A DNA stretch of 64,000 bases, taken from assembly GCA_012343875.1 (NCBI GenBank), contig GCA_012343875.1_3924.1; one strand, written 5' to 3'. The notes under the pieces were generated by a model, which did no database searches, was not told the origin of the DNA, and was given only the letters and a program-made list of their open reading frames with translations. This document shows positions 2,928 to 64,000 of this stretch, piece by piece. Position numbers and translations under genes: made by a program. How positions within the stretch are numbered: the stretch's first letter is position 1; the number at the start of each line of letters is the position of its first letter. Source of the stretch: a phage.

Positions 2928-3957
2928 TCATACACGGCTCCCAATTATATTTCTTAAAAGAGAAATTATCTTTTGGATTTCTTTCTTGATAAGCTATCCA
3001 GAAATGCTGTTCCATTAGTTCTAACGGTGTCTTTGTAACAGTCTGTCCATCCCATGATACATAGGTGTAAGAGTCTTTTTTAGCATAGAGTTCATAGATA
3101 GCATCAAGACACTCTTTGTAGGTCTCTTTACCATCTAAAGCATTCATCACAGCTACTTTACCAGCACCTTTAAGTCCGAAGTAGTTGTCTGCATTATCTC
3201 CAGCAACAGCCTGATAGCACAAGAATTTAAAACCTACACCAACTGTTTTTGCAGCTTTTGGTTTTGACTTGATAGGACAATCCCAGATATCACCAACATT
3301 ATTGTCAGCAATAAAGATTAGTGGTGATTTTTCATAAGTCATATCAATACAATAAGTTCCTTCAGCTTGTCGAAGGTCTTTGTCAATACTCATAAGAGCA
3401 GCTTTCTTACCCATCTTTTCAGCTTTAGCAATTACAATTGAATCAGCTTCGAAGCCACCCTTTAAAAGCTTGAACTCTGGTCTGGATAAAAGATATTCAC
3501 GACAAGCAACTAAGTGTGTTGGTGTGACAGCATCTTTACGGTTACCTTGATATTGGTGCTCAAGACCTTTAATGTCTTTATGTTTATGCACACCTTTCTC
3601 TGTTAAATAACCTACCCAAGTTCTCTCTTTACCAACAACCTTAAGCCATTCCTGAAGCACCTGTTGAGTAGCCATGATAGCTTCTTTTTCACTCTTAGCT
3701 TCTTTCCAAGTCTGTCTTTCCCATTCATCTTCATCAAATGTCAGGCCAAGCTCTTCCACAAGGATTCTCTGGTCTGCTAACCATCTTGCAGCATCTTTCG
3801 CATTATCAAATGGCTCAGATTCTTCTGCTGTGAGTTTATTGACGTATTTATATTTTGCTTTCTCAACTACACAAGCACCTTTATAGGCAATACTGTCAGA
3901 GTCAATAAAGACATGTGTAACTGAATCGGGAAGCTTTGTTAATGTGTACTTCTCCAT
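2917..3957 (-). CDS. 5'-3' exonuclease / flap endonuclease (FEN family)
   Basis: VFIDSDSIAY near N-terminus, GGFEADSIVIAKA (G-x-EADD-like) and SIDKDLRQ motifs typical of T5 D15 / T4 RNase H type nucleases. Confidence 0.6.
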   Translation of the reverse strand: MEKYTLTKLPDSVTHVFIDSDSIAYKGACVVEKAKYKYVNKLTAEESEPFDNAKDAARWLADQRILVEELGLTFDEDEWERQTWKEAKSEKEAIMATQQVLQEWLKVVGKERTWVGYLTEKGVHKHKDIKGLEHQYQGNRKDAVTPTHLVACREYLLSRPEFKLLKGGFEADSIVIAKAEKMGKKAALMSIDKDLRQAEGTYCIDMTYEKSPLIFIADNNVGDIWDCPIKSKPKAAKTVGVGFKFLCYQAVAGDNADNYFGLKGAGKVAVMNALDGKETYKECLDAIYELYAKKDSYTYVSWDGQTVTKTPLELMEQHFWIAYQERNPKDNFSFKKYNWEPCMNED

Positions 3958-3971
3958 TATGGCTCTCCATA

Positions 3972-4002
3972 TGAAAAAGCCCCATACTAAGTACAGGGCT
4001 TT
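3972..4002 (-). terminator. putative intrinsic terminator downstream of SSB-like gene
   Basis: Stem AAGCCC/GGGCTT with 12-nt loop; U-run on minus strand. Confidence 0.4.
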
Positions 4003-4019
4003 AAAGTAACTTTTAGAGA

Positions 4020-4877
4020 TTAGTCTTCTGTATCGAAGTCTTCATCCTCTTCGTCATCTGGGTCTGGCAAATCTTCATCATCACCATCATCAGACTCATT
4101 CGAAGATTTATGGTCTGTTGCATCTTCTTCAGTGATTTCACCGTTATCTTCGACACCATCAAGACCAAGCATAGCCAGTTCATCTTCATCCAGTTCAGGT
4201 TCACCATTAGCACCGTTACCACCAGTGTAAGGCACAAGAGTATCAATGATAAACTGTTCCTGAATAGGTTTTGTCAGAACATTGTTCTCAAAAGTGTAGA
4301 AGTGAGTAGAAAGAATCACACTACCAAAAGAACCGTTGCCAACTGCAATATCTGGGTGAATTACATCATAGTTCTTGTCATCTTCATGTTTATCAGATGC
4401 TTGAGCTTTGATTTTCTTCATTGGCTGCTTAACAGCTACACGCTTACCATTTACTTCTTCAATCAGCATTACAGGGAATGACTGTTTAGCTGTCCATACA
4501 GCACCATCCTTATAAGCTGCTGCACGACTTACTTTCAAGATGTAGTAAGTGTCTGCTTCAAAAGGTGGTTTACAACCAAACTTCTCTTCGAAGTCATCTG
4601 CATCAACTGCTTCAGTGGTGACTTTATCCCAGCCTTCTGGATTTTTCTTAGACTTAGTAAACTCTTTAAACAGTTTGTTACCGTCTTCTGCCAGAATTGA
4701 TACGCTGTAGTTACAGTCTTTTCCTGGGAATTTCTTATCAATAGACTTACCTTTTCCCGGACGTGGTGAAGTGTTCAGGTAATAAAACCAGACATCTTTC
4801 AGCAGGTAACGCAGAGTTTGACGCTCAGTACCGTTGTACTTCTCTACCGGAGCTTTCATTTTAACAACTTTAGACAT
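4020..4877 (-). CDS. putative single-stranded DNA-binding protein with acidic C-terminal tail
   Basis: C-terminus DDGDDEDLPDPDDEEDEDFDTED resembles acidic tails of T7 gp2.5-type SSBs; located among replication genes. Confidence 0.4.
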   Translation of the reverse strand: MSKVVKMKAPVEKYNGTERQTLRYLLKDVWFYYLNTSPRPGKGKSIDKKFPGKDCNYSVSILAEDGNKLFKEFTKSKKNPEGWDKVTTEAVDADDFEEKFGCKPPFEADTYYILKVSRAAAYKDGAVWTAKQSFPVMLIEEVNGKRVAVKQPMKKIKAQASDKHEDDKNYDVIHPDIAVGNGSFGSVILSTHFYTFENNVLTKPIQEQFIIDTLVPYTGGNGANGEPELDEDELAMLGLDGVEDNGEITEEDATDHKSSNESDDGDDEDLPDPDDEEDEDFDTED

Positions 4878-5377: not shown

Positions 5378-7343
5378 CTACATCCTCACTTAATACAGGT
5401 GGAATCGTTGAGCTTTGACGCTGCTCTTCAGTATAGACTTCACCAGTCTCACGGTCAAACACTTCATCCTCATAATGTGGCAAAGAGTCATCGTAATGGT
5501 CTTCAACTTCACCAATACCAAACTGCTGGCGAATGTTTTCTGCTGCACCATCAATGTCAACTCCACAACCAGATGCTTTGATGAGACGTCCTGTATCTGG
5601 ATTGTACCAAGTATGACCAGCAATACCAGTTGACTTACCATGCCGACGGCACTTAGTTAACTTGATTTTTGTCAAGTTTTTCTTAACAGGGTCTGGGTCA
5701 ACCTTGTTACGCATTAATAGAATGTTGTTCATAGAAATCTGGAAATACGCACCAGAGCCTTTGATATCCTCTTCAGAGATATCTCCACCTTCAGAGTTGG
5801 CTTTCTGACCCCCTGCGCTCTTACGAACGTGACAGACGTTCACCTGTGCATACTGGTAGCGTTTGCAACGGCGCAATAGTTCAGACAAAACTTCCTCTTC
5901 ATCCGTATCTGAACGTGACAGAGCCAACGTAATAGGGTCAAGAATAATAATCTTACAGTCTAAACTGTTAACAAGATAGTCAACAAATTCCAGCAGGTTA
6001 TCTTGGTCAATTGCACCTTGATGGTCTACGATGTGGATACGACGACCTTTAGATAGCTCTGCATGTGCTTCCTTCAATTCATCCCAATCACGTTCGTCAT
6101 AAGGAATCTCAGAAATCTGCTTGCTGAGGTGGATTGCACAGAGCATCTCCATCAACTCTTCATAGGTATCTTCGACCGGAATTACACCAATATTGTAATC
6201 GGTATCTTTCCAAGCAGTATAAATCATTTCACGAGTGTATGCTGATTTACCCACTGAAGATGGTGCTGCCAGAGTTGTAATCTCACCTAAACCATAACCG
6301 CCATAAGTCAGCCTGTTCAAATCTCCGAAAGATTCTGGGAAAGGAATCAATGGAATCTGACCACGATTCTTCATTGCCTCAAAACCATCTGCGAAGTTCT
6401 TGATACCAGCAGGGCAGTAACGGGGCGCATTGTAGATACGCTGCTTAAACCCTTCAAGAACTGTGTCTTTCTCTTTATAGAACTTTGTCCACCATTCGTT
6501 AAGGTCTTTTACACCTTCTGGATACTGGAATAAACGAACCTTCTCAATAGGTAGGATACCAGCAGCCTCTTTGGTAGCTTTAGCACCTGCTTCATCGTTA
6601 TCAAAGCACAAGTAAATTTCATCAAATGATGTAATGTACTGATAGTTATCTTTGATAGACTTAATGTTTGCACCTGACGGAACAGATACGTGACAGTAAT
6701 TCTTACGACGAGATTTGTCCTTAATCGCAAGAGAAGTCATATAGATTGCTGTCGCACATTCCATCTCACCTTCCCAGATGAATAGACGGTTACCACCTTC
6801 TGGAGCAATCCATGAACCGAACATTGCTAGTTCACCTTTAATGTCTCCAACACCACCAGAAAAGTCTTTTAGCTTACCACGTAGGTGCTCTTTTGGATGG
6901 TCTTCTGGGTAACGGTGACGAACACGGTAGCCAACATGTTCTAGCTTACCATCTTCATTACGTTTGTAAGTTGGGTAGAAATGTGCGTCAATTTCACCAT
7001 CACTGTCAATGTCAACCTTGATACCTAAGCGTTCAAGGACTTTTGCAGGAATCTTCCTATCTTTCAAGTCCATTGCTTCTAGGTTTTCTTTTACATCGTC
7101 TAAATCCATTCCACGGAAAGTACGGTTTTTATTGTCTGAACCAGTAGAATAAGTGCTCACGATTTGTCCTTTATCAAAATCCCACTCTGGGAAACCTTTG
7201 TTACAACTAAAGCAAGTCATTGAATAAGAATCATCGTCATGGTGATAGATTGAACCAGCATCTGATGAACCACAACGTGGACATGCGCAATGACCAACAA
7301 ACTGACCAGCCTCTTTCAATTTACGACCTTTAGACATTAGCAC
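5352..7343 (-). CDS. bifunctional DNA primase-helicase (T7 gp4-like)
   Basis: N-terminal Cys4 zinc-binding CPRCGSSD...CFSCNKGF, central TOPRIM-like region, C-terminal Walker A AAPSSVGKSAYT (DnaB-like). Confidence 0.8.
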   Translation of the reverse strand: MLMSKGRKLKEAGQFVGHCACPRCGSSDAGSIYHHDDDSYSMTCFSCNKGFPEWDFDKGQIVSTYSTGSDNKNRTFRGMDLDDVKENLEAMDLKDRKIPAKVLERLGIKVDIDSDGEIDAHFYPTYKRNEDGKLEHVGYRVRHRYPEDHPKEHLRGKLKDFSGGVGDIKGELAMFGSWIAPEGGNRLFIWEGEMECATAIYMTSLAIKDKSRRKNYCHVSVPSGANIKSIKDNYQYITSFDEIYLCFDNDEAGAKATKEAAGILPIEKVRLFQYPEGVKDLNEWWTKFYKEKDTVLEGFKQRIYNAPRYCPAGIKNFADGFEAMKNRGQIPLIPFPESFGDLNRLTYGGYGLGEITTLAAPSSVGKSAYTREMIYTAWKDTDYNIGVIPVEDTYEELMEMLCAIHLSKQISEIPYDERDWDELKEAHAELSKGRRIHIVDHQGAIDQDNLLEFVDYLVNSLDCKIIILDPITLALSRSDTDEEEVLSELLRRCKRYQYAQVNVCHVRKSAGGQKANSEGGDISEEDIKGSGAYFQISMNNILLMRNKVDPDPVKKNLTKIKLTKCRRHGKSTGIAGHTWYNPDTGRLIKASGCGVDIDGAAENIRQQFGIGEVEDHYDDSLPHYEDEVFDRETGEVYTEEQRQSSTIPPVLSEDVDDCPFETE

Positions 7344-7530
7344 CTCTTCGTTGTAGTTCTGCCTTCAATCCATTTTCAATCTTGTCCAGTTCATGAATTT
7401 CATCTGCAATCTCTTTCCTTCGTGATTCAACTCTCTTAAGACGTTCAATCATTACCTCATTGGAAAGAGATGAGAGTTCCACTAAACGGTGGTCAATAAC
7501 TTTAAAATTGTCTTTTACTCTCATCTTCAT
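7330..7530 (-). CDS. hypothetical coiled-coil protein (66 aa)
   Basis: ORF track. Confidence 0.4.
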   Translation of the reverse strand: MKMRVKDNFKVIDHRLVELSSLSNEVMIERLKRVESRRKEIADEIHELDKIENGLKAELQRRGANV

Positions 7531-7538
7531 TCTCTCTT

Positions 7539-8282
7539 TTAAACTTTAATGATGGCTCTTAGCTTGTTCTCAAGGTCTGCAAGAGTACCATTATTATGAA
7601 TAATGTCACGCTCATATTTTGTAGAAATCCCATTTTCTGAAACATGTGATGAAACTTTGTCCACATTGTCTCTTTTTACTTCAATAGTTTGGTGTGCAAA
7701 TCTACTCAGCCATTCAGCTTCAGAGTCAAATCTTAAATCACTGATTAAGACAAAACCATATTGATTTCTAAGTGAGCACATTTCATGGAATCTAACCATT
7801 CTTTTTTCAAGGTCTTTAGACCAGAACTTGTCGCCCATTACTTTACGGACAACTTCAGTACCCCAAATCTGTTGAATTTGTCTTGATGAGAATTTATACT
7901 TTTTGCTAAACCCCAGACGTGTCAATAGAGTCGGTTTAGCAACCTTCTTAAGCTCCATGATTAATCGTCCGGTTAACTCTGACATAAGCTTGAAGTCCAT
8001 ATGGTAACGTTCATCTCTGAAGGTGAACTCCATAGCTTCCGTAACTTTAAACATCAGTTCAGGATATGATAAGTCAAAAACCTGTGGAGTCTCTTTAGTT
8101 TCACCGTACAGGTCATTCCAAGTCAAGTCAAATATCTTTGATGCAGATAGTTTAAGGTTGTCTGCAAAGGCCATTACTTCAACATTGTAGCCGTACTCAT
8201 CCTCTAAGATGTTCTTCACAATAGAACATGAGGTGTCTTTTCCAGAACGTGCCTTTCCAGTAAATGCGATAATATTACTCAT
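7539..8282 (-). CDS. putative deoxynucleoside monophosphate kinase
   Basis: N-terminal P-loop IIAFTGKARSGKDT as in T4 gp1 / T5 dNMP kinases; size 247 aa. Confidence 0.55.
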   Translation of the reverse strand: MSNIIAFTGKARSGKDTSCSIVKNILEDEYGYNVEVMAFADNLKLSASKIFDLTWNDLYGETKETPQVFDLSYPELMFKVTEAMEFTFRDERYHMDFKLMSELTGRLIMELKKVAKPTLLTRLGFSKKYKFSSRQIQQIWGTEVVRKVMGDKFWSKDLEKRMVRFHEMCSLRNQYGFVLISDLRFDSEAEWLSRFAHQTIEVKRDNVDKVSSHVSENGISTKYERDIIHNNGTLADLENKLRAIIKV

Positions 8283-8343
8283 TTTATCTCCATTAATTAC
8301 TAAAAAGCCCCCAACTAAGGAGGCTTGTAAGATTTATAAAGAC

Positions 8344-9144
8344 TTAGTGCAGTTGCTCATCAGACTCTTTTTCAGCCATAGCTGAGAGTTGCTTCACAAA
8401 ATCATCACCGAAGTTAATGCGTAGTTTCTCTTCAATGATGGAAGCACCAATGTTCACCAAAACATCATTGATTGCTTGCATACTGACGCCACCAGTCATC
8501 TCTTCAATGAACTCAATACTCACACCCATCATCTGTGAAAGTTGGATTAGTGCAACGATATTCATCATCGTAGAGATAGCTGGAATCATTAGTGCAACTT
8601 TCACCTGAAGCGGTTCTATATCAGCTACAGAGTCATTCTCAACAGCTTCTTCCAAAGACTCTTTAGTTTGCTGGATAATCTCCTTGATTCGTGGGTTTAG
8701 TTCTTCTACACCCCAATCAAGTTTTTCATATCGTGACAACTTCTCTTCCATTCGCTTCTCAAGAGCAGCCATAACAGCACTGGTTGATGAAATTAACAGG
8801 TCAATTAGCTCATCATTACCTGCGAGTAGTAGCAAGTCTTTTTCTTCAGTGGTCATGGCAATATAGTCATTTTTCTGCATCTCATAAAAAATGAACTCTG
8901 CAAGAGCATCAACACCTACAACGATAGATGCTAAAGCAAGTGTTTTGTCGCAAAGCATCATGTTGACCTGTTCTGCAAAAGCACCGTTATCAGACTTGTC
9001 TTCAGGCAAGTTATAGCTTGCAGGCATAAACTGTTCTGTGTAGTTGTTCCCACGAAGAATCATAGCCATGCTTTCTACGGCATTGATTAAAAATGCTTCG
9101 TCAATACCTTTTTCTTCAAGCATCTTTTCTACATCGATATTCAT
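8344..9144 (-). CDS. hypothetical protein (266 aa)
   Basis: ORF track. Confidence 0.5.
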   Translation of the reverse strand: MNIDVEKMLEEKGIDEAFLINAVESMAMILRGNNYTEQFMPASYNLPEDKSDNGAFAEQVNMMLCDKTLALASIVVGVDALAEFIFYEMQKNDYIAMTTEEKDLLLLAGNDELIDLLISSTSAVMAALEKRMEEKLSRYEKLDWGVEELNPRIKEIIQQTKESLEEAVENDSVADIEPLQVKVALMIPAISTMMNIVALIQLSQMMGVSIEFIEEMTGGVSMQAINDVLVNIGASIIEEKLRINFGDDFVKQLSAMAEKESDEQLH

Positions 9145-9826: not shown

Positions 9827-12526
9827 ATGGAAAACGTAGATTTTAAAAACTTACATTTAGTTGGTGATACAGAAACTGATGGTTTACTCCTTGAGTTCAC
9901 TAAAGTGCACGTAATGGCTTTCGCAGACTATAAATCTGACGATGAAGAGCCACCTGTATGGGTCTTTACAGATGAACCTATTCTCGGTCACAAGTACACC
10001 AAGTACATCAAGGGTGGCTTACGTGAAGGTATTGAGTTTGCGTTAAAGGCAAAACGTCTTTGCATCCATAACGGTCTCGGTTATGACTGGTGGGTTTTCA
10101 ATCACATTGCACCTGATTTATGGAACTTTGATAACCCAAAGTGTAAACCGTGGAGTAATTTCTTTCAGGATTCTCTTATCCAGTCTCGTGTTCAGTGGAT
10201 GGATAGACCAACTCCAAAGGGTTATAAAGGTGCTCATGGTTTGGCTGCATGGGGTGCTCGTGTTGGTGTTCGTAAACCAGAGATTGAACATTGGGGTGTG
10301 TGGAATGCAGAAATCTTCACTCGTGTTGTAGAAGATATCCGTATTAACGCCAAAACTAAACGGGCACTTGATAATGAGTATCTCAAGCTTAAGAAGTGTG
10401 GCATAGATACTTATGAAACCTACATGCGAGCTAAAGAAACATCTTTCTGGATGAGCCAGCAAGCTATCAATGGTTGGAAAGCTGATAAAGAGCTTATGGA
10501 GTTCCATGTAAAGGAACTTGACAAGTTGACTAATGAGCTTGCTTCAGAGGTTGAACCACATCTACCTCCAACTATTAAGACCAAAGGTAAAGTAACTGGT
10601 GAAGAGTTTGCAAAGGCTTGGAATGAGTATGTTGAAACATTTGGTCATGCAGATGGGTTGAAGAGAATCACCAAGTATCCTAAGACGAAGTACCGTCAAC
10701 AGGTGCGTAACGGTGAGATGCAGACATACGAAATCAAACCATTTGGTAAGCCAACTACAAAGATTTTTAACATTGAAAAGAGAAATTGCTATACACCAAC
10801 CAACTCTGTAACTGGTGAAGAGTACAAGGAAGGCTTTGTAGCAATGAAGGATGCTCGTGCAATTTGCAATGAGTTGAATGCAAAGATTGGTAAGAAATGC
10901 AAAGACTGGAAGCCAGTGAAAACAGTCAAAACTGTGAAGTACTATAACAGTCACGTTGTTAACCACTTTGAACTTGAGTCAAGTCGCTACACAGGTTTGA
11001 TTGATGCACCATATACACCAATTGATTTTGAAGTTTCTCGTATGACTCAGGTAGCAGTTGTTAAAGACTACTTGAAATCAGTTGGTTGGATTCCAGATGA
11101 CTGGAACTACAAGAAAGACTCAGACGGTCGCCCTGTCAAAGTTTGTCGTTTCAAAGACAATAAAAAGATGATTACAAAACATCCTAAGTGGCAGGAGATG
11201 GTAGAACGTTGTGGTTTAAGTTATGTTGAACATGAAGGTGTTCAGTACATTGAGCATAACTGGTCTGTGAAGAAGTACACAGATTTGCTTGAGCCTTGCT
11301 TAATCCGTACTTCACCAAAACTTACTGAATCATCTTATGATACGATTGAAGGTGAGCTTGGACAGAAGATTGCTAAGTACTATACTTTGATGCACCGACG
11401 CAGAACTATTGAGAACTCAAAGGATGATGAAAAAGGTTGGTTGAACCAGATTCGTCCTGATGGTCGCCTTAGTGCTGGTGCAATGGTGTTTGGTACTTCA
11501 ACTGGACGTATGACACAATATGGTATTGTAAACGTACCGTCTGGTGCTGCTGTCTATGGGGAACCAATGAGGGCAGTGTGGATTTGTGAGGAAGGTACTA
11601 ACGTTGTCTCTGTAGATATGAACTCAGCCCAGCTAGTTCTTCTTTGTAACTTTATGGGTGATAAAGACTTCACCAAAGCGGTAACGCAAGGTAAAGAAGA
11701 GATTGAGTTTATTCGTCAAGAAGATGGACGCTATTACTGCAAACATTTTGATGAGTACCTAAACCCAGAAATTGATAAGTACCTTCGCTATGACTCTGAG
11801 AATGACCTGTACGTTGTCTATTCAGGGACTGATGCACATACACTGAACAGTATCTACTTTAGCTTGAACGATGAGCAGGACATCTTGACTTGTCGAGCTA
11901 CTCAGGATGAGAATCTTCTTCATGAGATTAGCAAAGGTCGTAAGAAAGCTAAGAATGGTATCTATGCACTACTGTTTGGTGCAGGTGATGAGAAGTTTGC
12001 TAAGACGATTAAAGCTGCAACTACTCAGGAAGGTGCACTGACTAAACAAACTTACTTTATTCGTTTGCCTAAAATTAAGAAGCTACTAGATGACTTGGAA
12101 GCTGACTACAAAGCAACTAAAAAGGCACTTGAAGAGGTGTTTGGTAAGACTGCTGCAATCTCTAAAGGGGGTTTTGTAAAGGTTGCTGGAGCTTGGTTGT
12201 GGTGTAAATCTCCACACAAACTGTTGAACTACCTTTTGATGGGTTCAGAGGCCCAGATTCAAAATGAGGCAATTAACCTTGCTTGTCGTCGCATGATTGA
12301 CGAAGGGTTGATGAAGCTAAATGGGCGTAAACCAGCTATAGGTGCTCGTTTGCTCTGCGCATATCACGATGAAACAAGTTGGGAATGCCCAGAAAGTATG
12401 ACGGCAGAAGTGAAAGCAGTTACTGACTGGTATTATGGACAAGCTTCTAAAAACTTAGGTCTTAAGAAAGAAACACTTGTTACAGGTACTGGTAAGGTTG
12501 GTAAAAGCTGGCTTGAAGTACACTAA
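9827..12526 (+). CDS. DNA polymerase, family A (Pol I-like) with 3'-5' exonuclease domain
   Basis: VGDTETDGL (Exo I) near N-terminus, long polymerase domain; start moved to ATG 9827 (GGAGGGAG 5 nt upstream) rather than track start 9797. Confidence 0.9.
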   Translation: MENVDFKNLHLVGDTETDGLLLEFTKVHVMAFADYKSDDEEPPVWVFTDEPILGHKYTKYIKGGLREGIEFALKAKRLCIHNGLGYDWWVFNHIAPDLWNFDNPKCKPWSNFFQDSLIQSRVQWMDRPTPKGYKGAHGLAAWGARVGVRKPEIEHWGVWNAEIFTRVVEDIRINAKTKRALDNEYLKLKKCGIDTYETYMRAKETSFWMSQQAINGWKADKELMEFHVKELDKLTNELASEVEPHLPPTIKTKGKVTGEEFAKAWNEYVETFGHADGLKRITKYPKTKYRQQVRNGEMQTYEIKPFGKPTTKIFNIEKRNCYTPTNSVTGEEYKEGFVAMKDARAICNELNAKIGKKCKDWKPVKTVKTVKYYNSHVVNHFELESSRYTGLIDAPYTPIDFEVSRMTQVAVVKDYLKSVGWIPDDWNYKKDSDGRPVKVCRFKDNKKMITKHPKWQEMVERCGLSYVEHEGVQYIEHNWSVKKYTDLLEPCLIRTSPKLTESSYDTIEGELGQKIAKYYTLMHRRRTIENSKDDEKGWLNQIRPDGRLSAGAMVFGTSTGRMTQYGIVNVPSGAAVYGEPMRAVWICEEGTNVVSVDMNSAQLVLLCNFMGDKDFTKAVTQGKEEIEFIRQEDGRYYCKHFDEYLNPEIDKYLRYDSENDLYVVYSGTDAHTLNSIYFSLNDEQDILTCRATQDENLLHEISKGRKKAKNGIYALLFGAGDEKFAKTIKAATTQEGALTKQTYFIRLPKIKKLLDDLEADYKATKKALEEVFGKTAAISKGGFVKVAGAWLWCKSPHKLLNYLLMGSEAQIQNEAINLACRRMIDEGLMKLNGRKPAIGARLLCAYHDETSWECPESMTAEVKAVTDWYYGQASKNLGLKKETLVTGTGKVGKSWLEVH

Positions 12527-57883: not shown

Positions 57884-58312
57884 ATGCAAATCATAGCTGG
57901 TCAAGAACTTGACATCATAGATGCAAAAACACAGGAGTACATCGCAACAGTGAAGGTTATAGGAGTCAGGGAGTGGAATACTGAATACCCAATTCAATGC
58001 CTTGTGCTGGAGAAGTTTAAAGCTAATGGTGTACACTTTTACCACGGTGACTACATCAGCTTTAACAAAGACGGTTATTGGCAAGGTAAGAACCATCCTC
58101 AAGCAAATAAGTTTGATATGCGTCTAGTGATACCACAAAAAGGTAAATCACAAAATGTAAAAGATATCCTTGTAGAAGCCTATGAAGAGGGTATAATAGA
58201 TATTGTGCATGATGTTGAAAAAGCTTTAAAGCTTGTTATGCCACATTTAGAGTCTGGAAAGCTGACTTTAGAGATGCTTAATAGGGTTATTCGGAGAGCT
58301 TATGAAAATTAA
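57884..58312 (+). CDS. hypothetical protein (142 aa)
   Basis: ORF track. Confidence 0.45.
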   Translation: MQIIAGQELDIIDAKTQEYIATVKVIGVREWNTEYPIQCLVLEKFKANGVHFYHGDYISFNKDGYWQGKNHPQANKFDMRLVIPQKGKSQNVKDILVEAYEEGIIDIVHDVEKALKLVMPHLESGKLTLEMLNRVIRRAYEN

Positions 58313-58766
58313 AGAAACAGTTCGAAAAGCAATGCTTACCAATTCAACTAAAGATGAAATGTACAAAGAAATCTGTGATGAGTTGAATTGCTCAAGACAT
58401 GCTGCTAAGGTTCTTGTACATTGTTTTATCTGGGAATGTTCAGAAGCATATATGAAACACGTAGCTTTTGAAAGTTCTAACTTACTAGGTGATGTAGAAG
58501 CTAGTGAGAAGCTAAAAGAACCTGAAGTGAAAACAGTCCCTAAAGTTGGTAATACATACCCTCTTAAAGACTTCAAGACTGGAAAGATTGTTGCAAAAGG
58601 TGTAGTAGAATCTGTTTATCATGATGGTAAATACTTACTTAAAATATTCGAGTATGACAGCCACTATACGCACTTATGTGGGATTACATTCTTAGTAACA
58701 GAAGAAGACCTTATTAGGAACAATAGCAACAAGTTTGCAGTACCAGCTTACCAAGTTTTACGATAA
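58302..58766 (+). CDS. hypothetical protein (154 aa)
   Basis: ORF track. Confidence 0.45.
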   Translation: MKIKETVRKAMLTNSTKDEMYKEICDELNCSRHAAKVLVHCFIWECSEAYMKHVAFESSNLLGDVEASEKLKEPEVKTVPKVGNTYPLKDFKTGKIVAKGVVESVYHDGKYLLKIFEYDSHYTHLCGITFLVTEEDLIRNNSNKFAVPAYQVLR

Positions 58767-58779
58767 CGGTGTGATAGAT

Positions 58780-59328
58780 ATGGAAAAAGATAACTTAAAA
58801 GAAGTTGAAGGTAACTACCTAGTCCTTGATTGGAGTGATGTTCGGGAAGCACTCTCCGAAGAAAATCTTGACTGGTTCGAACAAATTATCTTTGCAGTAC
58901 GGCATAACAGAGAAGTTGAAAATGGTAAAGAGCCACTTGAAGGAATCTTTGTAGAGAAGTCTTATCCGTTCTATGAAGACACTTTACAGAAAGTTAAGAT
59001 GTACTTTAGACAGAAGAACCGTAAAGTGGTCACTATGGTATCTCTTGGTGGACAGAATATGTCTGTGATGGAAGATATTAATCCTAAGAGACCGAGTAAA
59101 GGTATCTGTATAAAAATCACAGGACATGAAGAGTATATCTCAGTGGATGACTTTAGTGCATTCTGTAATGGCTCTTGTGTCTTTAATGGTTTTCACTATG
59201 ATATCCGAGTGTACCCAATCAAGGGAGATGATATCATGATGCAGGTATTTGATAACAACAACGGCTTTACTCATTTTTATCAGACAACCAAGTCATCACT
59301 AAAAACAGTTCTGGAAACACTGATTTAA
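58780..59328 (+). CDS. hypothetical protein (about 182 aa)
   Basis: Track ORF 58735..59328 appears to start at a non-ATG codon; first in-frame ATG at about 58780. Confidence 0.4.
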   Translation: MEKDNLKEVEGNYLVLDWSDVREALSEENLDWFEQIIFAVRHNREVENGKEPLEGIFVEKSYPFYEDTLQKVKMYFRQKNRKVVTMVSLGGQNMSVMEDINPKRPSKGICIKITGHEEYISVDDFSAFCNGSCVFNGFHYDIRVYPIKGDDIMMQVFDNNNGFTHFYQTTKSSLKTVLETLI

Positions 59329-59340
59329 AAATATCTTAAG

Positions 59341-59372
59341 AGCCTCCTTAATTGGGGGCTTTTTAATTTTTT
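59341..59372 (+). terminator. intrinsic terminator at end of plus-strand operon
   Basis: Stem AGCCTCC/GGGGGCT followed by TTTTTAATTTTTT. Confidence 0.65.
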
Positions 59373-59375
59373 ATA

Positions 59376-60917
59376 AAATTTTATCGGTTGTCCCAACCTC
59401 TGGGTCACCATCATATGTGAATAAAATATCTACCCTTCTTAACAACCTTCTTAATCTTACTCTCTATATATATAGTTATATAGTACTATATAGTATCTTA
59501 GTAACTCTCTAGTGGTCTTAATAGCCCCTCTGTATAACCCTTCTAACAAGCCCTCTAACAAGCCTTCTAAACAACCTATACAATCACCTTAACCATATCT
59601 CTACACCCTCTTAGAAGCTCCTATACACCTCTTAATCTCTATGTTAGCTATGACACTCTCTATAGGTGTTCACTAGGTATTACTAAGCCTCTATATAGAC
59701 TGTTTTAACAAACTTAACAGGAACATCTTTACAGACCTTATCTCACAAGGTCTAACACGGCACTAACAAGGTATCTTATAATCCTGTTTCTACCTGTATT
59801 TTTAAAAGACTGTATAGGTAATTATTCAGAATTTTAAAATTTTTATAAAATAGGACTATCAAGTCATTTTTTAGGGTCTTTGAAGGAACTCAAAAATATC
59901 TGTAGAAGATGTATATCTGCTTGGTAGCCCTTAACAGCTCCCTTACAAGTACTTTGCAAAATTTTAAAATATCCTTAACAATCTCTTAACAGTTCTCACA
60001 TCTTCTTAACAACTCTTCAAAGGTCTTAACAGTTTCTTAACAGAACTAACAAGGCTGTAACAGTTTTCTAACAAGTGCTGAATAGGCTTTACAGAATCTT
60101 AACAGATGACTAACAAGAGCTAACAAGTTAATTTTAAAGAGTTATTTTGTTAAGATAATTAACAAGTTTCTAACAAGTGTTTAATCTTTTTAACAAGCTA
60201 TTAACATGGTCACTATCTCTTTTCTTATCGTTCCCTTCCTTTCTTAGTGATTCTCTAAATATCCCTCTTAAAAGCTCTCTATAGCTCCTTGTAAGCTCTT
60301 TTAAGTCTCTTCCTAGTAATTACACCCCAACTGTATAGATACCTCTTTATAGGGCTTTACAGGAGCTTTTAAGGCTATGCCAAAGACTCTTACAAGGCTT
60401 TTACGTGGTCTTAACAGAGATTTAACAATGGGCTAACAAGTCTCTAACAAGTGCCTTAAAAGCATAACTATGTAGGGTTTGTTAAGAAATTGTTAAGAAA
60501 ATGTTAAGGGGGCTAGCATTTACGTAACTTTTAAGCTATCTATCACGTAACTTTGAAGTAACTTTATAGCCCCCTATAACATACTTTTTAGTGACTATCA
60601 AGGGGATTGTTTAGTTATTCACAAGATACTAGCCAACCTATTAGCTTATACCCTTATAAGATTCTTTTAAGCCTCTATAAAGCCCTGTAAAGAGCTTTTA
60701 AGGGTGAGTTAATGCAATCCCTTAAGTTAGATTGATAAGGCTGTTATAGCGCTTTATAGAGCGTTTAAATGGGCCATCCCCTTTCTGGGGTTATTGGCTT
60801 ATATTTAAGTTGATTTGATAAAAGGCTATAGAGTAGACTATAGAGTTATTGCTTTTAAGGTCTGATAAGATTCTGAAAAGGTGAGGAAAGGGATTGTATA
60901 AGGATTGGATAGACGTA
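59376..60917. repeat. ORF-free repeat-dense region with phased YTAACAR heptamers
   Basis: No ORF of 60 aa or more in any frame; about 25 copies of YTAACAR, many 10-11 bp apart (59977-60210, 60410-60450); CTTTTAAG and GTAACTTT repeats; palindromes at 59465-59493. Confidence 0.8.
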
Positions 60918-60940
60918 AAAAAGCCCCTGTGAGGGGCTGT
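60918..60940 (-). terminator. intrinsic terminator at end of minus-strand small-gene array
   Basis: Stem GCCCC/GGGGC (loop TGTGA) followed on minus strand by U-run. Confidence 0.65.
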
Positions 60941-60978
60941 ATAAAGGTATCTGGGGCTATTTAGCCCCGTTGCGGCGT

Positions 60979-61227
60979 TTAGTTAGTGCCTTCTTTGTCG
61001 TAGTACAGGGAGACAATTTTTTCACCCCAATAGTGATAAGAATAACCCTCTTTAAGAACTTCCTGTTTTGTTTCTTTCCAGAACTCATCAGAAGGGTTAT
61101 AGTCTTTGATGGTCTGACAGATAAGACCTTTCACCATCTCAAAGGCGTTATCAGTGCCTACAAGGTCAAATTTAACATCCAGAGAGCAAAAGCCGAATTC
61201 GTTAACAGTTGCGCGGATAGTAGCCAT
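60979..61227 (-). CDS. hypothetical protein (82 aa)
   Basis: ORF track; preceded by conserved leader cassette. Confidence 0.5.
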   Translation of the reverse strand: MATIRATVNEFGFCSLDVKFDLVGTDNAFEMVKGLICQTIKDYNPSDEFWKETKQEVLKEGYSYHYWGEKIVSLYYDKEGTN

Positions 61228-61318
61228 TTTAGAATCTCCTAGTTTAAGGTTTTATTTAGTAGGGAGGCCATCCCTCCCCGTTGATTAGTAATTTACTGCA
61301 TGTTGGCGTATGTTGCAA
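61228..61318 (-). promoter_or_regulatory. repeated leader cassette 1: promoter-like TTGCAA-17-TAAATT, GC hairpin, SD
   Basis: On minus strand: TTGCAA (61313-61318), 17 nt, TAAATT (61290-61295), hairpin GGGAGG/CCTCCC, then GGAG before ATG. Confidence 0.5.
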
Positions 61319-61556
61319 GCCTTTTTTCGTTGTATTTTGTAAGAATCTCACAAGATAAAACATCATATTTTATAACCGCGTTGCTTTTGTCGAGGTCAAA
61401 GAATCCAAACGCTTTACCATCTTTGAATCCGACAACTTCATAAGATTCTTTGATGATTTCACCATTGAACAAATCGCTTTCGATGCGGTGAAACAGTGCT
61501 ACGTCTTCTTTGTCAGTTGCAATTTGCAATAGTGTGGTTAATTCTACGTTTTCCAT
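61293..61556 (-). CDS. hypothetical protein (87 aa)
   Basis: ORF track; preceded by conserved leader cassette. Confidence 0.5.
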   Translation of the reverse strand: MENVELTTLLQIATDKEDVALFHRIESDLFNGEIIKESYEVVGFKDGKAFGFFDLDKSNAVIKYDVLSCEILTKYNEKRLATYANMQ

Positions 61557-61648
61557 CTTGATAACTCCAGTTTAGGACTTTATTTAGTGGGGAAGGTCAT
61601 CCCCTCCCCGTTGATTGACAATTTACAGATTTTTGATTGTCTCGTCAA
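61557..61648 (-). promoter_or_regulatory. repeated leader cassette 2: TTGACG-17-TAAATT, hairpin, SD
   Basis: On minus strand: TTGACG (61643-61648), 17 nt, TAAATT (61620-61625), hairpin GGGGAAGG/CCCTCCCC, CTGGAG SD. Confidence 0.5.
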
Positions 61649-62153
61649 TGTCTTTTTCAATATCTTTTAAAGTTTTTTCTAAGTTCTTGATATTGAACGT
61701 TAAACCTTCTCCCAGTGTCTTAGAGTAACCGCTAGGACGTAAATCATAAAGCTCGATTTCTTCCACTAGAGAAAGGTTAACAGTCCAGCCACCTATGCCG
61801 TAGGCCATTGAAACGGTATTTACAGGTGCTTTATAGAACTTGTTCAAGGACTTGATAGAACGTTCATAAGCCATTTTATAACCATTTAAAAGGTTTTTAA
61901 CGTGATTGTGAACGTTTTTACAATCATCTAAGTAAAGACCTAAAAACATCGGGAGAAGTTCCGCGACAGCTTGCATAAAGTGAGAGACTACAACGGTGGA
62001 AACATTACGACGATGGACGTAATAAGCCCCGTTTTCTGATTTGGTAATGGTTGCAAAGTGTACACCATTGCAACGAAATTCATAGGTATCTTTAACAGGC
62101 TTAGACATTACAGCATTTGAACGAATGAAGTTGATAGCTTGAAATTTGTTCAT
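61623..62153 (-). CDS. hypothetical protein (176 aa)
   Basis: ORF track; preceded by conserved leader cassette. Confidence 0.5.
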   Translation of the reverse strand: MNKFQAINFIRSNAVMSKPVKDTYEFRCNGVHFATITKSENGAYYVHRRNVSTVVVSHFMQAVAELLPMFLGLYLDDCKNVHNHVKNLLNGYKMAYERSIKSLNKFYKAPVNTVSMAYGIGGWTVNLSLVEEIELYDLRPSGYSKTLGEGLTFNIKNLEKTLKDIEKDIDETIKNL

Positions 62154-62244
62154 TTTAGAATCTCCAGTTTAGGACTTTATTTAGTGGGGAGGTTATTGCC
62201 TTCCCGTTGATTAGTAATTTACTTGTTTTGATAGCTGATTGCAA
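62154..62244 (-). promoter_or_regulatory. repeated leader cassette 3: TTGCAA-17-TAAATT, hairpin, SD
   Basis: TTGCAA (62239-62244), 17 nt, TAAATT (62216-62221), hairpin GGGGAGG/CCTTCCC, SD. Confidence 0.5.
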
Positions 62245-62373
62245 GCAATTTTTTAAGTTTATCTATAAAGAATCTTTTAAGTTAATCCATTTTAGATAAA
62301 CCCCCTCGAACAAAGTTACCAATGTCAAGGGGAGTTGTCAACACTTTTTTAAAAGTTTTTTGTAAGTTGTTGA

Positions 62374-62715
62374 TTAACTGATGAATATTTTTTCAGGTTT
62401 TACATAGCTGATACGCTGGCTTTTTAGCAGGTCATCCCAGATTAGCGCGGCAATATGAGAATAGCCGGATTCACGTAAAATCTTCATTGTTTTACTTCTC
62501 GTTTCAAAACGGCTTGCGTAGTATTCACTGTTCAAGGTAGTTTTATTCCCTTCGTTATCTGTATGGATGATTTGCATTACCTGAAAGGGGCTTACATCCT
62601 CGCCTTTGTTCCACTGCTCAAAGTATTTTAGGCACTGCATAGGCGACATCTTATCACTGACTTGAGTTGACCAAGATGAGTCAGCTTTATCGGTAATTAC
62701 GGTTACATAAGCCAT
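62374..62715 (-). CDS. hypothetical protein (113 aa)
   Basis: ORF track; preceded by conserved leader cassette. Confidence 0.5.
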   Translation of the reverse strand: MAYVTVITDKADSSWSTQVSDKMSPMQCLKYFEQWNKGEDVSPFQVMQIIHTDNEGNKTTLNSEYYASRFETRSKTMKILRESGYSHIAALIWDDLLKSQRISYVKPEKIFIS

Positions 62716-62807
62716 TTTTGAATCTCCAGTTTAGGACTTTGTTTAGTGGGGAAGTTCATTCCCTCCCCGTTGATTGACAATTTACAGATTTTTATCAGGC
62801 TTGTCTA
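62716..62807 (-). promoter_or_regulatory. repeated leader cassette 4: TAGACA-17-TAAATT, hairpin, SD
   Basis: TAGACA (62802-62807), 17 nt, TAAATT (62779-62784), hairpin GGGGAAGTTCATTCCCTCCCC, SD. Confidence 0.45.
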
Positions 62808-63038
62808 GTCTTTTTCAATGATAATTTCATATTGACCATCGACGCTATCAAAATAAATGCCGTCGCTATCTTCTGTCTTAAAGTAACATTGTATATCATC
62901 ACTGGCGGGATAGTCTTGTCTTGCTATCTGGCAAACTTGAATAGCATTTTCTTTACTCCCTGTAAACTCCTCAAGCCCTTTAAAATCGCATGAATGACCA
63001 TTACAAATAGAAAGGATGAGATAAACGGTTGTCAACAT
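62805..63038 (-). CDS. small putative secreted/lipoprotein-like protein (77 aa)
   Basis: N-terminus MLTTVYLILSICNGHSC has hydrophobic core ending in Cys (imperfect lipobox). Confidence 0.4.
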   Translation of the reverse strand: MLTTVYLILSICNGHSCDFKGLEEFTGSKENAIQVCQIARQDYPASDDIQCYFKTEDSDGIYFDSVDGQYEIIIEKD

Positions 63039-63104
63039 GATTTAAGCCCTCTAAAAGCCCCTACAAGGGGTTGATTAGTGTTTATAAGGTGATTGCATAG
63101 GTTT

Positions 63105-63647
63105 TTAGAAAAAGCTCTTTAAATCCTCTTCTGCAATGTTTCCTGTCAGTGTATCCATGATGTCACAAAAAACCTGAATACTGTCTGAATGTTGAACACT
63201 TTTAGCGAGAAGCTCCAGAGACTCATCAAGATAGTTTAAATTTGGGTTATCCAATGAAGGAAGACAAAAAGGTGAATACATAGCGTTAAACTCTGTTGTA
63301 TAGACCTTTTTAATCCAATTTACATCAAAGTACTCTGTAAAACTTGCTACACTCGACATATTATCACAAGAATAATCATCATTTAGCTCATCCTCTGGAA
63401 TATCTAGTTCTAAGATAACAATATTTTGGGTTTTCATCTGGAAAGCTGCGGTGATAGTGGCATTTCCTAGAGCTTGTTGGATACCTTCTGATGCTATTTC
63501 TTCCTCATCGTCGCCATAGATTTTATTTTCTGGATACACGTAAAAATTGCCGTCCATATCCGAACAATTCCATGCGCCTGATGGTTTATCACCGTTATTA
63601 ATCAGGTTGATGAAGTTTTCTTGAGTAGTACCGTGAAAGCATTTCAT
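63105..63647 (-). CDS. hypothetical acidic protein (180 aa)
   Basis: ORF track. Confidence 0.5.
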   Translation of the reverse strand: MKCFHGTTQENFINLINNGDKPSGAWNCSDMDGNFYVYPENKIYGDDEEEIASEGIQQALGNATITAAFQMKTQNIVILELDIPEDELNDDYSCDNMSSVASFTEYFDVNWIKKVYTTEFNAMYSPFCLPSLDNPNLNYLDESLELLAKSVQHSDSIQVFCDIMDTLTGNIAEEDLKSFF

Positions 63648-63732
63648 TTTTGAATCTCCAGTTTAGGATTTAGTGGTAAAGCTCTTTATCTGGGGCTTAA
63701 GATATCAGCTTTTAAGCCCCTTGTAAAGTACT
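63648..63732 (-). promoter_or_regulatory. variant leader cassette with 9-bp-stem hairpin
   Basis: Same SD context (GAATCTCCAGTTTAGGA) then hairpin GGGGCTTAA/TTAAGCCCC (63692-63720). Confidence 0.4.
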
Positions 63733-63936
63733 TTAACGATTATTTTTGACAACTTTTAAAACTGCAAGATAACCTAAGCAATAAGAATCACCGAAGAGAG
63801 TTCTACCCATGAAAGAATCCTCTTTAATATCCTTTGCAGTAACAGTTTTCTCTACGCCGTGGGAAAGGACTACATCACCAACTTTGATGTCTTTGATGTG
63901 TGCTGTTTCAATGTTTAAGCCGTTAATAATAGCCAT
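63733..63936 (-). CDS. hypothetical protein (67 aa)
   Basis: ORF track; preceded by conserved leader cassette. Confidence 0.5.
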   Translation of the reverse strand: MAIINGLNIETAHIKDIKVGDVVLSHGVEKTVTAKDIKEDSFMGRTLFGDSYCLGYLAVLKVVKNNR

Positions 63937-64000
63937 TTTTGAATCTCCTAGTTTAAGGACTTTACTTAGTGGGGAAGGTCATTCCCTCCCCGTTGATGTG
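63937..64000 (-). promoter_or_regulatory. repeated leader cassette (truncated by window end)
   Basis: TTTGAATCTCCTAGTTTAAGGACTTTACTTAGTGGGGAAGGTCATTCCCTCCCCGTTGA matches the other cassettes. Confidence 0.45.

Follow-up and report, generated by a model that had tools for sequence, protein, structure and literature searches.

T4-like myoviruses (RB49/phi1, PST/T4 and nt-1/KVP40) carry promoter-early stem-loops (PeSLs) in front of small genes (Arbiol et al. 2010, PMC2839356; Comeau et al. 2014, PMC4122927). A PeSL is made up of a σ70-like early promoter with an AT-rich tract upstream, a GGGG...CCCC stem-loop in which G.T pairs occur, and a Shine-Dalgarno (SD) sequence with an ATG at the 3' end (PMC2839356; PMC4122927). 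The elements form dense arrays between ORFans in hyperplastic regions, and recombination crossovers have been mapped within them (PMC2839356; PMC4122927). The stem-loop may lie upstream of the -35, overlap the -35, lie between the boxes, overlap the -10 or lie downstream of the -10, and subclasses have been defined on this basis (PMC2839356). Here we describe an array of cassettes that are probably of the same kind in a 64,000-nucleotide stretch of phage DNA (GenBank assembly GCA_012343875.1, contig GCA_012343875.1_3924.1), the whole of which is referred to as the window. The cassettes lie near its end and combine a promoter, a GC-rich hairpin and a ribosome-binding leader in front of small minus-strand genes.

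The last 3.3 kb of the window is 99.5% identical to Escherichia phage HY02 (Felixounavirus), and about 250 other Felix O1-like myoviruses (Ounavirinae) match it at lower identity. An apparent 536-bp indel between the window and HY02 proved to be an artefact in which the first 64 nt had been matched to another cassette copy. The coding strand of the array is the minus strand of the window, which holds the last seven array genes, homologous to HY02_021 to HY02_027. Position 63936 is the start of HY02 gene 021, and the HY02 array begins at gene 014, past the window edge. Pfam has no family for any of the seven, and the PHROGs that they match carry function-less annotation. The genes behind the cassettes are mutually unrelated ORFans, with the sole exception of the paralogues 019 and 021. 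By reverse transcription PCR, ORFs 13, 16 and 20-22 of the array in Felix O1 belong to the 5-min class, which peaks 5 min post-infection.

An earlier note on this DNA, made from its letters, had described a near-identical unit repeated before small minus-strand genes. The repetition is well borne out: the promoter-to-stem pattern TAAATTNNNNATCAACGGGRAGG has four matches in the window against 0.03 expected, and the leader pattern has three against 0.00. Profile hidden Markov models built from HY02 cassette copies were used to search the window and 13 Ounavirinae loci. This gave 144 cassette instances, six of them in the window, all within 61225-64000. The unit is about 65-90 bp long and comes in two stereotyped types that share one SD leader (..CCTAAACTGGAGATTCAAAA-ATG), with GGAG 8 nt before the ATG in every window copy. 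Type A is present five times in the window, one copy being cut by the window edge, and type B once. Of the five genes that had been listed as preceded by the unit, four have it whole, but before gene 63936..63733 only the hairpin and leader are visible. The list was also incomplete, as gene 63647..63105 had been overlooked; it has the second type (hairpin 63720-63692) with the same leader.

A blastn search of 50,697 phage records with 11-nt words found both types almost only in Ounavirinae-type records, and neither type in any T4-like phage. The record of Staphylococcus phage SA1 (GU169904.1) and one Campylobacter-labelled record hold up to seven cassette copies at 96% identity; these are likely to reflect contamination or mis-assembly with Felix O1-like sequence and not true spread.

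Type A runs from an AT-rich tract through a -35, 17 nt, a -10 and 10 nt ending in ATCAAC to a GC hairpin of 7-8 bp, followed by ACTAAATAAAGTCCTAAACTGGAGATTCAAAA-ATG. The -35 is TTGACA, TTGCAA, TTGACG, TTGACT or TAGACA, and the -10 is TAAATT, TAAAGT or TAGTAT. The σ70-like promoter pattern proposed for the unit is thus present, every type A copy having -35, N17 and -10 in fixed register. Between the -10 and the stem, 65 of 70 copies, from three genera, have exactly 10 nt, so a transcript started 7-8 nt past the -10 would have the hairpin 2-3 nt from its 5' end. The earlier note had also placed the -35 of each unit inside the upstream gene. That holds for only two units (-35 at 61648-61643 and 61318-61313), whereas the -35 of a third (62716..62807) is TAGACA, whose TAG is the stop codon of gene 63038..62805, and the fourth (62154..62244) comes after a 220-bp gap.

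Type B is laid out as TAAAGTACTTTACA-N-GGGGCTTA[loop]TAAGCCCC-AGATAAAGAGCTTTACC, followed by the leader as in type A. Its promoter is TTTACA-N17-TAnnnT in 57 of 60 copies. The -10 takes the form of eleven different hexamers, all of which keep T-12, A-11 and T-7, the three most critical σ70 positions, and a TGn extension precedes it in 29 of 58. These promoter sites were also picked up independently by a σ70 consensus scanner. The 20 nt upstream of the -35 are 79% AT in type A and 76% in type B, compared with a background of 63%. The type B -10 lies inside the hairpin loop and the 3' arm lies over the start-site region, so that the transcript from this promoter, beginning at about AGATAAAG, would be without the hairpin.

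The hairpins are conserved as pairing rather than as sequence. In the window the whole type A stems are GGGGAGGG/CCTTCCCC in two copies, GGGAAGG/CCTCCCC, with one A.C mismatch, and GGGGAGG/CCTCCCT, and G.U pairs are present. The 3' arm TCCCTCCCC given in the earlier note is absent; the real arms are CCTTCCCC, CCTCCCC and CCTCCCT. Type A stems vary by genus (GGGGAGGG/CCTTCCCC, GGGAGG/CCTCCC, GGGGC/GCCCC, GGGC/GCCC and GGGA/TCCC) within fixed flanks, with the pairing kept by compensatory changes. All cassette copies fold, at -3.7 to -16.1 kcal/mol. All 42 unique type A leaders fold better than their shuffles, with a mean z of -4.8 for a segment chosen independently of structure. RNAalifold returned 0 pairs from a MAFFT alignment of 31 type A leaders, in which the variable-length arms were misaligned by the sequence-only aligner; type A structure was judged instead by anchor-based pair counts and by this structure-independent shuffle test. 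Rfam covariance models gave no relevant match at E <= 1 in 58000-64000.

In type B the eight pairs of the upper stem are 100% canonical in 35 unique sequences, and 0 of 2000 column shuffles match the observed pairing. The changes are GC<->UA in Erwinia phage copies, UA/AU<->AU/UA in six sequences and CG<->UG in nineteen. By pair counting, the six unambiguous outer pairs are also 100% paired (0 of 500 shuffles), compared with 64-72% when the partner is slid by one column. In read-through RNA, fold prediction gives a helix of 9 + 5 + 6 bp, about 20 bp in all, with a 3x3 internal loop, at -24.6 kcal/mol (z = -3.44, 0 of 200 shuffles). Five unique copies have switched G-C to U-A in the lower stem; this breaks the local palindrome of each flank and keeps the long-range pairing. 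In both types the sense strand folds more stably than the antisense strand (p ~ 0.002), because G.U pairs are common. The hairpins are conserved structures that most likely form in RNA.

Is the hairpin a 5'-terminal mRNA element in general, a stabiliser against decay or a translational or processing operator, with each gene an independent transcription unit behind an identical leader? This was the reading of the earlier note, and we regard it as possible and, on balance, doubtful. Several points speak for it. In type A the 10-nt spacing is held while the sequence and length of the stem change, a start 7-8 nt past the -10 would put the hairpin at RNA nt 3-4, the strand bias fits an RNA element, and work on the E. 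coli ompA 5' untranslated region (UTR) reportedly established that E. coli mRNA is stabilised by a stem-loop placed a few nt or less from its 5' end. The reading of a 5' hairpin can apply only to type A. The type B hairpin wraps the promoter, so RNA from the predicted start, which lies 3' of the hairpin, lacks it and shows no structure on folding (z = 0.04). Identical leaders with a 5' hairpin fail there, and the covariation of its lower stem needs read-through RNA.

Similar hairpins also occur at other positions. In the intergenic region between rIIA and rIIB (HY02 2393-2471) the promoter is TTGACA-[GGGGCTTCAAAGCCCC]-T-TAGAAT, that is TTGACA-[GGGGCT..AGCCCC]-TAGAAT, and the GC hairpin lies wholly within the promoter spacer. 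The same arrangement is found in wV8, Mordin, SUSP2, KPS64 and Moogle, and it is kept in three genera with a loop that varies. Overall, the hairpin is placed after the start site in type A, around the -10 in type B and in a gene-less composite at 62341-62301, in the spacer between rIIA and rIIB, and alone at the end of the array with nothing downstream. A role at the 5' end cannot, then, be the general function of the hairpin. Nor are independent transcription units supported, since there are no terminators between the genes: no cassette hairpin has a U-tract, the sole canonical terminator ends the array, and the type B structure can form only in read-through RNA.

A second possibility is that the hairpins are rho-independent terminators, with the genes insulated from one another by promoter and terminator pairs. 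The GenBank depositors of ASO1A, KhF2 and XTG1 label cassette hairpins 'terminator', several GenBank records have a 'promoter' directly before it, and an RB49 PeSL stem-loop lowered the expression of downstream lacZ as much as rrnB T1 did (Arbiol et al. 2010, PMC2839356). We nevertheless consider this very unlikely. No U-tract or T-run follows any cassette hairpin, the tails being ACTAAATAAAG or AGATAAAGAG, and a terminator scanner passes none of them, accepting only the site at 60938-60917. Type A hairpins lie downstream of their own promoters and, as terminators, would abort their own transcripts. In addition, a cassette-type hairpin stands after the last gene (60953..60968, minus strand; CAAC-GGGGCTAAATAGCCCC-AGATA) with no promoter and no gene behind it, and the canonical intrinsic terminator that closes the whole array (60917..60938, minus strand; AGCCCCTCACAGGGGCTTTTTT) follows it about 15 nt on. 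The records of Barry, ASO1A, Mordin and Moogle mark the latter as a terminator, and the pair is kept in 10 phages of three genera. The presence of a canonical terminator so close behind implies that the hairpin alone does not terminate. The cassette hairpin is neither a terminator nor solely a 5'-UTR element.

The earlier note had also raised an RNase III-like site. RNase III processing sites lie between the early genes of phage T7, and type B cassettes might likewise be places at which host RNase III, or a nuclease of the phage, specifically cleaves double-stranded RNA. The polycistronic early RNA would then be split into monocistronic mRNAs, each with a hairpin to protect its 3' end. The predicted type B helix in read-through RNA is about the size of a T7 early site, its upper and lower stems both covary, and it has no U-tract. 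Close upstream of the array lies a gene for a macro-domain protein, whose homologue in Meda bears the depositors' note 'RNase III inhibitor, RNA processing'. On the other hand, the proposal is a matter of structure prediction, Rfam offers no match, and the TAnnnT held at a fixed register in the apical loop is accounted for by a promoter and not by RNase III. The type A stems, at 7-8 bp, are too short for RNase III, which leaves most window cassettes unexplained; only the type B helix is large enough. We think it rather unlikely that processing is what type B is for.

The inverted repeats could also be sites in duplex DNA, either operators for a repressor of early promoters or targets of a site-specific recombinase. 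In type B the arms enclose the core promoter (about -34 to +1), where an operator classically lies, the GGGG...CCCC of PeSLs was speculated to be a protein target (Arbiol et al. 2010, PMC2839356), and genes are exchanged here in cassette-bounded units. The arms, however, keep complementarity and not sequence (GGGG/CCCC against GGTG/CACC; CTTA/TAAG against TTAT/ATAG). A U.G pair in 19 of 35 type B copies and the better fold of the sense strand fit a single-stranded sense structure and not symmetric duplex recognition. There is little likelihood that such sites explain the repeats, and the exchange itself does not look site-specific.

Comparison of gene order in 13 genomes showed that gains and losses come as units of cassette plus gene. 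Either 016 or x2, or no gene, occupies the slot before 017; before 022 there may be 021, x5, the two together or neither; additional genes are found before 024, and gene 026 is present or absent. In VpaE1, FO1a and Meda, which are without 026, the one remaining cassette is a chimera of the cassettes that flank 026 in HY02. The crossover lies in the -10 in FO1a, just past the hairpin in Meda, with a duplication of the leader, and in the leader in VpaE1. Three different crossover points indicate at least three independent recombination events inside cassettes, and their scatter over the cassette is what homologous, and not site-specific, exchange predicts. Empty tandem cassettes are present in Mordin and KPS64, and half cassettes also occur. 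Barry has a cassette-bounded duplication annotated 'Repeat_01', and Sf14 has a duplicated gene between cassettes.

Could the cassettes then be mere flanks of recent tandem gene duplications? The paralogues 019 and 021, which have near-identical promoters in HY02, fit this description. The remaining downstream genes are mutually unrelated. The cassettes persist through four genera in which the intervening genes are not the same, and their stems have undergone compensatory change. Apart from the 019/021 pair the explanation is refuted, and as a general account it has next to no probability. The cassettes before the 019 and 021 homologues occur with two promoter alleles, alpha (TTGACACTG..TAGATAGATTAAATTACACATCAAC) and beta (TTGATTTTG..AAAACAAGTAAATTACTAATCAAC). 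The combination is alpha/alpha in HY02, wV8, ASO1A and FO1a, beta/beta in Barry and Meda, and beta/alpha in VpaE1, a pattern that suggests gene conversion or exchange between paralogous cassettes.

We therefore favour, as the probable explanation, a composite in which these are PeSL-type cassettes that join promoter, stem-loop and leader, punctuate read-through RNA and provide portable homology for recombination. It draws on what is visible in the DNA: the architecture of the cassettes, their conservation, the structural covariation, the strand bias, the lack of U-tracts and the junctions within cassettes. From these we infer promoter activity, transcription start sites and an effect of the hairpin on RNA. 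Each small ORFan would receive its own host σ70 early promoter and a strong, uniform ribosome site, and so would be expressed wherever it lands. As there are no internal terminators, transcripts would run on through the downstream cassettes to form a nested set, all ending at the single terminator at 60938-60917, and the stem-loops would punctuate this read-through RNA. The type A hairpin could shield the 5' end of its own transcript, a protective role made plausible by the invariant spacing from the -10, and in read-through RNA it could serve as an internal barrier and a 3'-end protector. The type B helix of about 20 bp, which encloses its own promoter sequence, would be confined to read-through RNA, where it may serve for attenuation or processing. 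In the DNA, the dispersed near-identical units would be portable homology through which recombination deletes, inserts, duplicates and replaces modules of cassette and gene.

Several observations weigh against this composite. Generic σ70-like matches number 7 against 8.9 expected from shuffles, with no enrichment in this AT-rich DNA, so the case for promoters rests on the fixed register and on comparative conservation and not on counts; the 5-min RT-PCR signals of the Felix O1 ORFs lend it indirect support. The copies are related by descent, possibly with gene conversion, so the shuffle statistics overstate their independence, and the compensatory changes may trace to few events. A literature search found no transcript-end data for any Felix O1-like phage, and promoter use, starts and read-through are predicted. 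Among seven genomes, 14 of 23 gene families are variable in the array compared with 5 of 11 in the adjacent cassette-free block, a modest contrast. The Ounavirinae are not T4-like, and there is no detectable sequence similarity between their cassettes and PeSLs. Finally, the strict 10-nt spacing of type A fits a role at the 5' end better than generic punctuation, so types A and B may differ in function. That a 5'-end-specific role is the main function of type A is a tentative possibility. This, the RNase III-type reading of type B and the composite overlap and are not mutually exclusive. An account that goes further than any of these would make both types dedicated RNA punctuation for nested early transcripts. 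Type A would provide a cap-like protective hairpin at +3 of every new transcript and type B a processing helix of about 20 bp, cut by RNase III or a phage factor and hiding a promoter, so that the incoming RNA would be ended or cut by the very DNA from which the next one starts. The unit would double as an integrase-free, integron-like recombination module across the Ounavirinae (phages of Escherichia, Salmonella, Shigella, Citrobacter and Erwinia). We regard this fuller account as improbable.

The seven small early ORFan genes occupy 60979..63936 on the minus strand, as 63936..63733, 63647..63105, 63038..62805, 62715..62374, 62153..61623, 61556..61293 and 61227..60979, and all of the cassettes are on the same strand. 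The type A cassette before gene 63936..63733 (63937..64000) is cut by the end of the window. Its hairpin GGGGAGGGAATGACCTTCCCC is at 63991-63971 and its SD, GGAG, at 63948-63945; the full unit, with TTGACA-N17-TAAATT, is visible only in HY02 (11104-11200). The type B cassette before gene 63647..63105 (63648..63735) has the -35 TTTACA at 63727-63722, the TG-extended -10 TATCTT at 63704-63699, the upper stem GGGGCTTAA/TTAAGCCCC at 63720-63692 and the SD at 63659-63656. Its predicted extended helix spans about 63735-63677, starting at the upstream gene's stop codon. No cassette precedes gene 63038..62805. Before gene 62715..62374, the type A cassette 62716..62807 has its -35 at 62807-62802, the -10 TAAATT at 62784-62779, the hairpin at 62768-62748 and the SD at 62727-62724.

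The gene-less composite of promoter and hairpin (62301..62341, minus strand) lies in the 220-bp gap 62154-62373 and reads TTGACA-N17-TAACTT, then TTTATC. Arms of CCCC...GGGGG straddle the -10, the site is conserved, and the ASO1A depositors annotated a promoter and a terminator there. In Mordin and KPS64 the gene x12, for a 46-aa putative membrane protein, lies later in this gap, just before the next cassette. In this gap the window has only ATG-GAT-TAA, and HY02 has AGG for the window's ATG.

In the type A cassette before gene 62153..61623 (62154..62244), the -35 TTGCAA is at 62244-62239, the -10 TAAATT at 62221-62216 and the SD at 62165-62162; the hairpin GGGAAGGCAATAACCTCCCC at 62205-62186, the one with the A.C mismatch, is the weakest copy. 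The type A cassette before gene 61556..61293 (61557..61648) has the -35 TTGACG, the -10 TAAATT at 61625-61620, the hairpin at 61609-61589 and the SD at 61568-61565. The last, before gene 61227..60979 (61228..61318), has the -35 TTGCAA, the -10 TAAATT at 61295-61290, the hairpin GGGGAGGGATGGCCTCCCT at 61279-61261 and the SD at 61239-61236. Genes 62153..61623 and 61556..61293 end in TAA, and in each case these three bases open the -10 TAAATT of the next cassette (61620-61625 and 61290-61295). The last codons of gene 62153..61623 (..AAA AAT CTG TAA) are likewise cassette sequence, which is non-coding in the copy at 62779-62795. With stop codons and C-terminal codons inside cassettes, recombination between cassettes can rewrite the C-termini of proteins.

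Directly past the array terminator is a gene-free stretch of 1.6 kb (59330-60950), and relatives leave the same 1.5-1.7 kb unannotated. It is packed with 8-mers of the CTTAACAG/CTAACAAG type in both orientations, often with a phasing of 11-12 nt. CTWAACAR occurs 39 times in the whole window against 18.6 expected, with 15 of the 39 within 59438-60614, and the GC skew flips across the stretch. The stretch could serve as a replication origin, or its repeats could be iterons or bind a protein. At the other end, the 520-bp gap upstream of the first cassette in HY02 (8022-8543) holds four or five CATTTTCA-N4-GTGCAGGTA-like repeats and a C-rich run (CCCCTCTCCCCCTCTTACTCCCCCTCTCCCC), and a similar TTGTGCAG precedes HY02_003. 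These repeats may belong to a different promoter or regulatory class. The gene for the macro-domain protein, labelled 'phosphatase', lies directly upstream of the array at HY02 7237-8022. HY02_003 (3682-4230) was considered as a RegB candidate, in view of the Mordin depositors' label 'similar to T4 endoribonuclease RegB' and the GGAG in every leader. The lead was dropped because this protein gave only a sub-threshold SLT (lytic transglycosylase) match and a PHROG of unknown function.

Papers and records of the Felix O1 group show parts of the cassette as unexplained direct repeats, or as promoters and terminators annotated separately, and in no other form. Repeats of 39 bp and 57 bp are listed in the Felix O1 genome paper, according to which it 'is not known' how transcription gets past the terminators. 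The wV8 record annotates nine DR (direct repeat) families, and the wV8 paper makes no mention of them. A literature search found no paper that connects Felix O1-like phages with PeSLs or promoter-stem-loops. If the cassettes are what we take them to be, mobile regulatory cassettes of the PeSL type would extend from T4-like phages to an unrelated myovirus subfamily. The same design in two lineages suggests a convergent, general way to plug foreign ORFans into the early programme and to shuffle them. The question left by the Felix O1 genome paper on transcription along the early region would be addressed by a predicted promoter before nearly every early gene, and the GenBank 'terminator' labels on cassette hairpins would be corrected. 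For phage engineers the unit may be a natural portable expression cassette, from phages that are used in the typing and biocontrol of Salmonella and E. coli. With a promoter embedded in a covarying helix, type B offers a compact case in which to test how DNA and RNA signals overlap.

How, then, do the cassettes compare with known systems? Like the T7 RNase III sites, they are structured intergenic elements in a train of co-oriented early genes. The type B helix is similar in size and also has an internal loop, and its hairpin could remain on the 3' end of the upstream mRNA. The T7 sites, however, have no embedded promoter, and type A stems are far too short for such sites. Type A also resembles the 5' stem-loop of ompA, with a hairpin predicted close to the 5' end and an AU-rich single-stranded leader and the SD behind it, but type B transcripts would lack it, and the Felix O1-like hairpin is also found where no transcript starts. 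In their dynamics the units recall integron cassettes (attC) and phage morons: these too are small modules of one gene, most with a promoter, that come and go whole within a dedicated variable region. Unlike integrons, the array has no integrase and no attC-like site, and exchange looks like homologous recombination between repeated regulatory DNA. Morons differ in having their own non-repeated promoter and terminator.

The closest likeness is to PeSLs. All of the architectural PeSL features that are open to computation are found in the Felix O1-like cassettes. As judged from sequence, both types have a σ70-like -35 and -10 with a spacing of about 17 nt, an AT-rich tract upstream of the -35, and an SD with a start codon at the 3' end. 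Both have, adjacent to the promoter, a stable stem-loop, often of a G-run and a C-run with G.U (G.T) pairs, held by compensatory change, and its position relative to the promoter is variable, here downstream of the -10, around it or within the spacer. The arrays are dense and lie between small ORFans in a variable region, with the modest contrast given above. Indels, replacements and degraded or half copies occur at cassettes, and junctions or crossovers lie within them. Sequence similarity to T4-like phages is absent, so what connects the cassettes with PeSLs is their kind and not descent. As PeSLs are an architectural class, the missing relatedness lowers the case for 'homologous to' and not that for 'works like'. 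Promoter activity, attenuation and mini-circles have been demonstrated in RB49/phi1, whereas the Felix O1-like cassettes are known from their DNA sequence. PeSLs are loosely aligned motifs, whereas two highly stereotyped types dominate here. What is noteworthy beyond the PeSL pattern is the fixed hairpin of type A, predicted at +3, with 10 nt between -10 and stem, and the covarying helix of about 20 bp that encloses the promoter in type B.

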